Origin: Endomicrobiales bacterium
GTDB lineage: Bacteria; Elusimicrobiota; Endomicrobiia; Endomicrobiales; JALOBY01
Reading direction: 5' to 3'
NCBI GenBank assembly: GCA_963796955.1
Contig: CAWCNJ010000009.1
Location: forward strand, 37,903-101,902
Length of the DNA: 64,000 nt
Shown in pieces: positions 48,001 to 51,000 of this stretch. The position numbers are program-made. Each line of letters begins with the position of its first letter. The first letter of the stretch is position 1.

Positions 48001-51000
48001 TCCCCGCGCGGCGATAAAATAGTGTTCGCCCAGCGCCAGGGCAGGGATAACTACGATATTTACATTTACGACCTGGCCTCCACCCGCGTCTCGCGCCTTA
48101 CCCAGAACCAGGGAACGAACGAAAATCCTTTCTGGTCACCGGACGGACGCTTTATCGTTTTCAGTTCCACTCGCTCCGGCCGCAAAGAGCTCTATATCAT
48201 TGCCGCCGACGGATCGGGAGCCCGCAAACTGACGGACCTGGCCGGTAACTCCGCGACGCCCTCCTGGTCTCCCTGAACACTACGTAATAAACCTTGCAAA
48301 CACTTCGATAACACGTTAAACTTACTATAAGTCAGTTTAAAATATTTGATAATAAGGCGGGGGTTAATTGAGATATTTTCTTCGAACAGTTCTGCTGATC
48401 TGCCTGGCCGCGAACGTGTGCTTTGCTACCGCCCCTTCCGTGATAACAGTGACCTCCCTTACGGCGACCCAGAACGGCAAGGCGTGCGAAATAACATTAA
48501 ATAACGCCCTTACCATCCGTGAAATAAATATCGTGAACGTCGGTGGACGTACCCTGCTGAAATTCCCCGAATCCATTTCCAAACGCGGCAAGATATTCCC
48601 ACAGGTGCGCCTTACTTCAAGGCAGGCGCGCGAAGCGGTCTATTCTGCCGTAGAAAAACATGCACCCTCCAGCCACTGGGGGCCGCTGAGCTTTGAGGTG
48701 TCGAAAGTAATGCGCTACGGTAAAAAATCCTCGCTGAAGGCTTTCGTGTCGGTCGTTTTCGGCGGGGGGGTGGAAATAGAAAGCCGGGTCATCACCGGCA
48801 GCAAGGGATTGTTCGTCGCCTGGCCCGCACGTAAATCCGGTAGTCAGTGGGTAGATCAGGTTACGATCGACGATCCTAAAATAAAAAGTGAAGTGGAGGC
48901 AGCGATCATTGCAGCCTACGAGAAATAATGGAAATTAACGAGATCAAGAAACAGGCGCTCAAAGAGATCCTGCAAACCATCGTTGTTCCGGTGGCAGCCT
49001 GGCTTGCGTTTTTCGCCCTGGTATACAATCTCATCAAATCCCCTATCCCGAGAGAATTAATATTCCCTCTCAGCGGTCCCGTGATGCTGGTGTTGTATTA
49101 TTTCTCGGGTCCCATTCAGAGCGGTATTTATCTGGGCTTCCTTACGGTCGTCGGTTTGGGCGGCATTCTGCTGGCCGCCGACGGCGGCATGCGCTGGGTC
49201 TTTTTGTTCGAGACCATCTGGCTGTGGGCCTTCTTCCTGATGATAGAACTATATCAGCAAAACTACATCGCCGAAAGAAACCACCGTAAAGAGGAAGAGG
49301 AAGTTTCTGAAACGCGCCTTGCCCTGCTCGGCAGCACCATTGAATCCACGCAAAAACGCCGTGACAGCCTGATACAGCGCATATCGAATTATCAGCTGCT
49401 CGGGCGCATAGTCCAGATAGCGGGTTCCACGATACACGAAGAGCGGATCCTGCCCATGATCGTGCGTCTGGCCGCGAAATTCATAGCGCGCGGCACCTGG
49501 GACGTAAAGCTGGACGATACCGATAACGCCTTTGTCGAATATGTGAAGAACAACAAGGTGCCGTTGATCATAGAGAACCTTTCCACCGACAACCGCTTTT
49601 ACTCGAAGCGGGCGCGTTTCTCTTCCATGATCGCCGTGCCCGTTGAGGTAAACGGGGAATTCCACGGTATCATAAAAGGTATCTCTTCCCGTACCGATGA
49701 ATTCGATGAAGGCGACCTGCGGTTGTTATCCGTGCTGGGGGGCCTTGCCAGCATCTCTTTGACCAATGCCCGGCTGTACCAGCGCTTGCAGGAACTGTCC
49801 ATAACGGACGGCCTTACCGGCCTGTACGTGCAGCGGTATTTCAAAGAACGATTAAGCGAAGAATTGCAGCGTTCAAAAAGCCATAACCTCGCGCTCTCAG
49901 TGGCATTGATAGATGTCGACCATTTTAAGAAGTTTAACGACAACTACGGTCACAGTTCCGGCGATGCCGTTTTGCGGCAAGTAGCCCACCTGCTGCGCCG
50001 CCGTCTCAGGGAGACCGACTTTCTGTGCCGTTACGGCGGCGAGGAGTTCTCCTTGATCATGCTGCAGACGTGCGGCCAGGAAGCCGGGGTGATCTGCGAA
50101 GAGATACGGAAAAGCATAGAGAGCGAACGCTTCTACCTGCCGATAGAAAGTTTTCAACCGGTCTGCGCGCGCCTGGCTGTCAGCATCGGTATCGCGGAAT
50201 TTTCAAGGGCGGATCAGACGGAAAATGAATTGATAGAGCTTGCCGATGCGGCGCTCTACCGTGCCAAGAAGAACGGCCGCAATTGCGTCGTGCTGGAGCA
50301 ACAAAAGCAATGATCAATATCTTCGAACTTAGTTTTCTAAAAGACCGCGGGAGATCGGCTGTGCTGCTTGCCGGCTTGCTCGCTGCCTTCTTGTGCCTGT
50401 ATTTTTCCGTTTTTACCGGGTCCATGCGGGAGATCGCGCTCTATTTTCTTATGCTGATCGGCCTTTTCTTCGGCTTTAACTGGCCGGAAACCTCTCTGGT
50501 AACCAATGGTATGGGGGCCTTGCTATTAGTAACAACGGTGCATCCGTTGGTTGCGATCCCGGTACTGTCCCAGCTGACGCTGTTCGTTATCTCCATTATG
50601 GTGCCTTTTTACTTCGACCGGATACTGCGCCTGGAAAGGGCCAGTTACCTGCACCATTGCCAGCCCCTCAGGGAACAGGAGGCCGCCCTTACCCTAAAGT
50701 GCGCCACCTTTGAACAGGAAAGGCAGGACCTGGAAACCGATATCGAACGGATCAATCAGATATATGTTCTCGGCAGGGAACTGGTGGAGCACACAGAAAC
50801 TAGTTCAGTAATAGACAATCTCCAGCGCGTGCTTCTCGGCCGGCCCGGTATGAGGGCGGTCGCTATTTACCTGCGCGAGAACGACGCCTGGGTTTGCGCT
50901 TACTGTTCACGTAAAGAAGAGCAGCGCAGATGGCTGGACTACCTGCAGGTGAAAAAATCCGTTAACAGGGAACACCGTTTCCATATTATCCCGACCAACG

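Follow-up and report, generated by a model that had tools for sequence, protein, structure and literature searches.

ComEA is the periplasmic DNA receptor of natural transformation, and in model bacteria it is this protein that holds incoming DNA in the periplasm. In the YfiBNR system, YfiR docks on YfiN. SpoVG (PF04026, PRK13259; B. subtilis, Staphylococcus, B. burgdorferi) has been studied as a cytoplasmic DNA/RNA-binding regulator, and the canonical protein is a single domain of ~90 amino acids without a leader. According to the accessible text of PMC11086051, SpoVG binds RNA, ssDNA and dsDNA in a manner that is not entirely sequence-dependent; both K50 and R51 of the S. aureus protein are required for DNA binding, as stated in the accessible portion of PMC3688583. 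Type I PC4-like domains (Pur-alpha repeats I-II, Whirly/P24, MRP1), defined in the available text of PMC7549692, are single-chain versions of a homodimer. In the main text and supplement of that paper, as available, SpoVG is not named, and the words "secreted" and "periplasm" are absent from its main text. Our literature search, which covered papers available without subscription, found neither an exported nor a tandem SpoVG described, and a literature search for an SsgB precedent returned nothing.

The gene described here is located at positions 48368-48928 on the forward strand of the window (the whole stretch of 64,000 nucleotides that was analysed), exactly where the survey had placed it. 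It starts with TTG and encodes 186 amino acids, as seen from the open reading frame, the Pfam matches and the AlphaFold2 model. A purine-rich stretch resembling a ribosome-binding site, read from the sequence, precedes the TTG by 4 nt (48354-48363, forward strand). The start column is the same or nearly so in 5 of the 7 closest full-length homologs, one of the other two starting earlier and one being cut short. No sigma-70 promoter above the threshold was found on the forward strand 5' of the gene, and no RNA holder was among the matches listed in the RNA search.

The survey's finding that the chain consists of two SpoVG domains is borne out by Pfam, by the AlphaFold2 model and by the fold search. 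The protein scores 53.8 bits against the Pfam SpoVG family (PF04026, cut-off 29.6) in two stretches. When the repeats are scored apart, repeat 2 (approximately residues 107-186; 48686-48925, forward strand) passes with 37.2 bits and repeat 1 (approximately residues 26-98; 48443-48661, forward strand) fails with 19.2 bits. The score against PRK13259, the SpoVG equivalog of NCBIfam, is 34.8 and lies below the cut-off of 108. The Pfam search at E-values up to 1 yielded SpoVG matches only, and no helix-hairpin-helix. The model, built from 38 sequences (pLDDT 94.5, pTM 0.84), contains the strands-hairpin-helix unit twice. All top matches in the fold search are SpoVG, with Foldseek TM-scores to the target of 0.65-0.78; the matching structures 2ia9, 2i9x and 2i9z have Z-scores of 8.9-9.1, with the best rmsd of 1.4 over 81 residues of repeat 2, and the next, unrelated chains have Z-scores of 5.1-5.3 or less. 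The printed match ranges cover repeat 2, and the assignment of repeat 1 to SpoVG is based on its sequence and on the topology of the model, not on a fold match. Both repeats can be aligned with plain SpoVGs of Elusimicrobiota. Matches in the viral library were to single SpoVG-like units only.

Residues 1-20 (48368-48427, forward strand) form a predicted Sec signal peptide, recognized by our own heuristic and by comparison with the leaders of homologs. It follows the pattern of basic, hydrophobic and small residues, has a predicted cleavage site after A20 and contains no lipobox. Leaders were scored by two heuristic rules of our own, a loose one and a strict one that includes the cleavage motif, both calibrated on open reading frames of the own genome. 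The loose rule recognizes a leader in 138 of 141 scored homologs, 7 of the scored rows being near-duplicates; 22 of 163 rows, including the leaderless multi-repeat SpoVGs P0135 and P0154, had been dropped as fragments or as having fewer than 12 residues before the domain, and the same rule passes 37% of all own-genome reading frames. The strict rule is passed by the target and by 94 of 116 family rows, the background being 24% of 1716 own-genome reading frames and 2 of 18 plain SpoVGs. Two members, P0142 and P0155, have lipoprotein-type leaders ending in LAGC. At least two cysteines are present in 23 of 29 divergent members; most of them lie in pairs close to where helix 1 ends, an arrangement that would fit a disulfide. 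The leader sequence varies freely among homologs while its pattern is kept. The rule counts together with the lipoprotein-type leaders and the paired cysteines make export of the protein likely; the N-terminal signal peptide reported by the survey is thus supported, with export itself as a prediction.

In the alignment with S. aureus SpoVG, R155 and K156 of the target, which belong to the W152-P-A-R155-K156 segment of repeat 2 (48821-48835, forward strand), correspond to K50 and R51; repeat 1 has no such basic pair. Among 116 aligned family rows at least one of these two positions is basic in repeat 2 of 104 rows and both are basic in 45. Both are basic in repeat 1 of none of the 116 rows, as compared to 22 of 22 plain SpoVGs. 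Repeat 1 has Tyr in 99 of 116 rows and at least two Lys or Arg residues at the tip of its hairpin in 94. This hairpin, P67-Q79 (48566-48604, forward strand), is the best-conserved surface motif in the alignment of 116 rows: Pro is found in 98%, Tyr69 in 85% and Gln in 78%, Lys or Arg in 69% at position 72 and in 75% at position 75, and an aromatic residue in 84% at position 77. The target carries Ser at position 69, where the family mostly has Tyr. The net charge of the core is positive in 93% of the 116 rows (median +9). The target has a net charge of +9 and a pI of 9.85, which places it at the 92nd percentile among the 276 soluble proteins with a leader in its own genome but only at the 82nd among the 115 small exported ones. 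The repeat-2 hairpin is absent in 9 aligned divergent members of families f17 and f21, and the repeat-1 hairpin is acidic in some divergent members, all 29 of which are still net basic. Given these hairpin changes and the often incomplete basic pair, the putative binding surface of the family has been remodelled and not just retained.

The target sequence alone, used as a query, found matches in 92 of 151 sampled Elusimicrobiota genomes. With an iterated profile that includes the divergent members, a match longer than one domain was obtained in 108 of the 151 genomes (a manual count of the match table, 5 of these matches being partial, at contig ends or split), and single-domain matches were obtained in 6 further genomes. 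Conservation across the phylum, claimed by the survey on the basis of 22 of 41 genomes, therefore stands and its extent proves to be wider; retention in reduced genomes is supported as well. The two-repeat family was not found in the searched families f4, f6, f15, f19, f22-f26, f28 and f29. Alignments of the divergent and the typical members match each other with 100% probability, but they had been put together so that they overlap in character. A 67-row tree agrees approximately with the family labels; since its backbone is open and its bootstrap support unsettled, no ancestral context is claimed. A scan outside the phylum with the lipoprotein form P0142 found nothing. A similar scan with alignment A9 returned 8 loci, of which 6 are labelled as Elusimicrobia or Endomicrobia and 1 as a Caldiserica bin, and the clusters of 30 proteins that were looked up yielded few names; the range may be wider than Elusimicrobiota, to which most of the named matches belong.

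Eight proteins with leaders contain four repeats. The model of a four-repeat member, built from 8 sequences, has a pLDDT of 83.5 and a pTM of 0.50, and at this pTM a fixed tetramer-like packing is unsupported. Leaderless multi-repeat SpoVGs also occur (P0135 with four repeats, P0154 with two or more), and because of them it is the predicted export, not duplication, that is the unusual trait of the family. The exported gene is apparently split in one genome (G035, C63:1202-1843) and is duplicated in tandem in another (G017, C108:1618-3367).

A gene for a GHMP kinase precedes the plain SpoVG gene of the phylum at 21 of 22 loci, and GlmU-like and Prs genes often follow it. The own genome yielded no plain SpoVG gene, and the usual neighbourhood of this gene is also missing from the 81%-complete assembly. 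Of four near-complete f2 genomes tested, three yielded none and the fourth has the gene broken across two frames. In G022, G002 and G008 (99% complete) and in G061 the exported form alone was detected. The exported protein had been described as standing beside a separate ordinary SpoVG, and this arrangement is not general. The complete genome G031 has plain spoVG split over two frames (C1:1446254-1446501) and the exported form intact.

In the window, the stop codon of the tandem-SpoVG gene overlaps the ATG of the next gene (TAATG). The latter (48928-50313, forward strand) encodes a membrane GAF-GGDEF protein with 4-5 membrane helices and short loops, and it overlaps by ATGA with a second membrane GGDEF gene (50310-51689, forward strand). 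The GGEEF/GGDEF motifs of both cyclases are intact, and both proteins have short loops only, without a periplasmic domain. Across this pair (48928-51689; relatives L034-L110 and L181-L188) the membrane helices, 4-5 in each protein, belong to no Pfam family, and GAF was matched in the first protein. The pair is kept in many genomes of 1.1-1.3 Mb, including 14 of 19 in genus g3, and possibly constitutes a heterodimeric cyclase.

Within the order, the tandem-SpoVG gene directly precedes the GAF-GGDEF cyclase gene at 36 of 45 loci, which come from 5 families and often show an overlap; this agrees with the position before a membrane GAF-GGDEF gene noted in the survey. An obligatory partnership is not borne out. 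Of 5 genomes tested, chosen for the missing neighbour, 4 have the gene intact and yielded no GGDEF; the gene is also intact in 8 genomes of the order without cyclase 1, and the cyclase pair is present without it in G065, G119 and G133. Only 4 genomes outside the order yielded cyclase 1. The linkage is thus a strong synteny within the order that dissociates both ways. Complex prediction, in which the mature protein was combined with each cyclase's membrane part, gave a score of 0.00, which is evidence neither way.

Upstream of the tandem-SpoVG gene the window contains Pal/OmpA, TPR (CpoB-like), TonB/TolA-like and TolB genes (45152-48276, forward strand). Tol-Pal-type genes are directly upstream in 1 of 61 loci, and Tol-Pal was rejected as a functional context because this neighbour is not conserved; in locus L087 homologs of three of these genes occur two to four genes downstream on the opposite strand. 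No DNA-uptake gene flanks the target locus. Farther upstream (38845-42262) there is a histidine kinase gene and, behind it, a gene whose product combines three receiver domains with a GGDEF domain; of the four GGDEF genes detected in the assembly, three are thus located within about 11 kb. At 51790-59616 there is an open reading frame of 2608 amino acids with an FHA domain and two protein-kinase domains.

Other lineages present the gene in other contexts, for which part of the cassette labels were assigned by blastp to Pfam-labelled references. In f9, f16 and f20 it belongs to a same-strand cassette with sorting-tail proteins, PorP/PorV-like barrels and HHH_3-motif barrels. HHH_3 (ComEA-type) matches are located no more than 6 kb away in 6 genomes, representing 3 families, and also occur at 2 four-repeat loci; the strong HHH_3 matches in the order of the target lie in frames of 720-840 amino acids and are presumably Tex, not ComEA. 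A second ComEC is encoded in the same-strand cassette, downstream in G010, G032 and G017 and upstream in G061. Next to it there are PD-(D/E)XK, UvrD and metallo-beta-lactamase genes in G032, G017 and G061, and Tad genes in two. The four cassettes (L133, L135, L137 and L144 in G010, G032, G017 and G061) include a protease with a sorting tail, and the second ComEC is of 960 amino acids; proteases and carbohydrate-binding modules are found in the cassettes as well. The f8 cassette lacks tandem-SpoVG: its slot is taken by a secreted protein of the PLD family, and the cassette ends with pilin and prepilin peptidase genes. In f21 and f17, DUF192 and either PilB or an outer-membrane barrel lie 3' of the gene; most f17 loci have DUF192 plus an outer-membrane barrel.

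The four-repeat genes are followed in 5 of 5 loci by a gene for a seven-helix orphan and then, where the contig allows, by the HhH cassette. This stand-alone multi-pass protein of ~260 amino acids with conserved RPxQ and GPxPxP motifs belongs to no Pfam family and is encoded directly 3' in 8 loci (among them L176:9177-9950, L068:3543-4346, L061:5163-5951 and L039:6466-7278); a homolog is present in the own genome (C5:146024-146845). Look-alikes of the orphan were found by Atlas in archaea, and there is a weak lead to HisKA_7TM. Homology between the orphan and the cyclase membrane part was rejected (probability 5%).

ComEC is present in 146 of 151 genomes, including genomes without tandem-SpoVG, so its co-occurrence discriminates nothing. 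ComEC lies within 21 kb of tandem-SpoVG in 7 of 31 genomes as compared to about 1.1 expected, in a test where the set and the 21-kb cut-off were chosen after seeing the data and the related genomes are not independent. One more case (G089) was noticed among the other 77 genomes in the coordinates listed, and the excess over the whole phylum is modest. A ComEC paralog of 1130 amino acids in G067 (L134:4518-7907) is fused to a staphylococcal-nuclease domain. The 1.1 Mb genome G022 (99% complete) keeps tandem-SpoVG and ComEC; in this one genome no GGDEF, HHH_3, plain SpoVG, FlgD tail, PorP-like barrel or pilus ATPase was detected.

The reading that we favour, with a probability of 0.45, sees in the protein a basic SpoVG pseudo-dimer, single-chain and periplasmic, whose DNA binding assists uptake or scavenging. 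It would be exported by Sec and cut by signal peptidase I, and the mature protein, having no sorting tail, would stay in the periplasm. The two SpoVG units would fold as a single-chain pseudo-dimer, so that no partner chain would be needed after export. The basic and aromatic hairpin surface would bind DNA with little sequence preference, and incoming DNA would be held between the outer-membrane entry route and the ComEC channel. This reading is supported by the SpoVG fold and the nucleic-acid binding of SpoVG (PMC11086051, accessible text), by the net basic core of the family and of the target, by the basic positions of repeat 2 and by the Tyr and Lys/Arg hairpin of repeat 1. Further support comes from HHH_3 and the second ComEC near the gene, from the PLD/pilin cassette of f8, and from G022, where the gene and ComEC are kept without the other tested neighbours. 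Endomicrobium express comEC, while the outer uptake route is stated to be unclear and comEA is not mentioned in the available text of PMC8809381; expression of comEC with an unexplained outer route fits the same picture. The reading is weakened by the scarcity of complete basic pairs relative to plain SpoVGs, by the repeat-2 hairpin loss and the acidic repeat-1 hairpins, by the near-universality of ComEC and the post hoc character of the proximity test, and by the target locus, which has no flanking uptake gene. The proteases and carbohydrate-binding modules of the cassettes and the unexceptional charge among small exported proteins also weaken it, as does G022 itself, in which no pilus ATPase was found that could bring DNA to the periplasm. 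It appears rather unlikely that in Elusimicrobiota a cytoplasmic SpoVG regulator was turned into a periplasmic DNA receptor of new fold which replaces ComEA, provides the missing periplasmic step of uptake in Endomicrobium endosymbionts and, in the order of the target, through co-expression with the cyclases, ties incoming DNA to c-di-GMP signalling.

A serious, if doubtful, alternative is that the SpoVG fold has taken on a general role in the envelope that does not involve nucleic acid, such as binding of peptidoglycan, LPS or another polyanion, or as a chaperone of outer-membrane barrels. Envelope genes neighbour the tandem-SpoVG gene in most lineages (Tol-Pal in the window, PorP/PorV-like barrels in several families, DUF192 with an outer-membrane barrel in most f17 loci), although Tol-Pal is not a conserved neighbour. 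Retention in G022, where all tested neighbours but ComEC are missing, is what would be expected for a housekeeping envelope protein, and the divergent members are net basic without the SpoVG basic pair. However, no specific ligand or partner was identified, and the hairpin carrying the conserved basic and aromatic residues is the one that binds DNA in SpoVG. A dedicated role in a secretion system is disfavoured by G022 and G002, in neither of which FlgD tails and the PorP-like barrel were found. It is highly improbable that the leader is an uncleaved anchor or is unused and that the SpoVG domains, tethered to the membrane, bind nucleic acid on its cytoplasmic side. The permissiveness of the loose rule and the longer hydrophobic leaders of a few members (P0047, P0090) would agree with an anchor, but in 94 of 116 rows basic residues and a short hydrophobic core are followed by small-residue cleavage motifs, lipobox forms occur, cysteines are paired in divergent members, and the leader pattern is kept while the sequence is free to vary.

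The protein could also act as the periplasmic input of a membrane sensor: it would bind a ligand, possibly DNA or its fragments, and dock on the cyclases or on the seven-helix orphan, as YfiR does on YfiN. This seems improbable. The position directly upstream of a cyclase in the order and the kept GGEEF/GGDEF motifs speak for it, but the gene is intact in 4 genomes where no GGDEF was found and in the 8 genomes of the order without cyclase 1, the cyclase pair occurs alone in three genomes, and cyclase 1 is scarce outside the order. The short loops of the cyclases offer no periplasmic domain to dock on. The multi-pass orphan directly 3' in G001, G003 and G007 and at 5 of 5 four-repeat loci analysed, as well as PilB with its MshEN domain as a near neighbour in f21 and G041, are also consistent with sensing, but no relationship was detected between the orphan and the membrane parts of the cyclases. 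The DNA, envelope and sensor readings, all of which imply export, are not fully exclusive.

An exported, fused form kept phylum-wide points to a second job for a fold studied as a cytoplasmic regulator, and this form is kept in genomes of 1.1-1.3 Mb where the ordinary gene was not found. This analysis contributes a count over the whole phylum and shows that the gene persists where plain SpoVG or the cyclases were not found. It further adds that the gene and the cyclase pair each occur without the other, that four-repeat and lipoprotein forms exist, and that divergent members have lost the binding motif. If DNA is bound in the periplasm, this would make the protein a DNA receptor with no relationship to ComEA, and DNA uptake by Endomicrobium endosymbionts (discussed in the available text of PMC8809381) could be tested with a small soluble protein. 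If it is not, the family is still a phylum-wide envelope protein.

As can be seen from a comparison with the known systems, an architectural precedent for a SpoVG fusion is the type I PC4-like domain, likewise of ~160 amino acids with four strands and a helix, a linker and a repeat of this unit in one chain (for the target, in the model), which represents a homodimer in single-chain form (PMC7549692, available text). PC4, PUR and Whirly chains were not among the fold matches listed for the target. The leaderless multi-repeat SpoVGs P0135 and P0154 also consist of tandem units, but they have no signal peptide and are much closer to the Pfam model. Canonical SpoVG has in common with the target the fold (Z 9.1, rmsd 1.4), the Pfam match, the basic character and, in repeat 2, a Pro followed by the basic pair. 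It differs in being a single domain without a leader, whereas the target has two domains behind a leader and the family two or four units per chain with no basic pair in repeat 1; the target is also far below the PRK13259 cut-off and lies outside the GHMP-kinase/GlmU-like/Prs neighbourhood. ComEA resembles the target in being small and exported (for the target, as predicted) and in its place between outer-membrane entry and ComEC, proposed here for the target, and genes for ComEA-type HHH_3 and ComEC adjoin tandem-SpoVG in some lineages. However, ComEA is a helix-hairpin-helix protein, whereas the target has an unrelated fold without this motif, and its DNA binding is a prediction. YfiR is likewise exported, and its gene directly precedes that of a membrane diguanylate cyclase, with Pal/OmpA encoded in the vicinity, but it is not among the sequence or fold matches listed, the cyclases here lack a periplasmic domain and the linkage is not obligatory. 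On present evidence, the tandem-SpoVG protein is a protein of the SpoVG fold which is neither a canonical SpoVG nor a ComEA, and is at most a putative regulator of the YfiR type.
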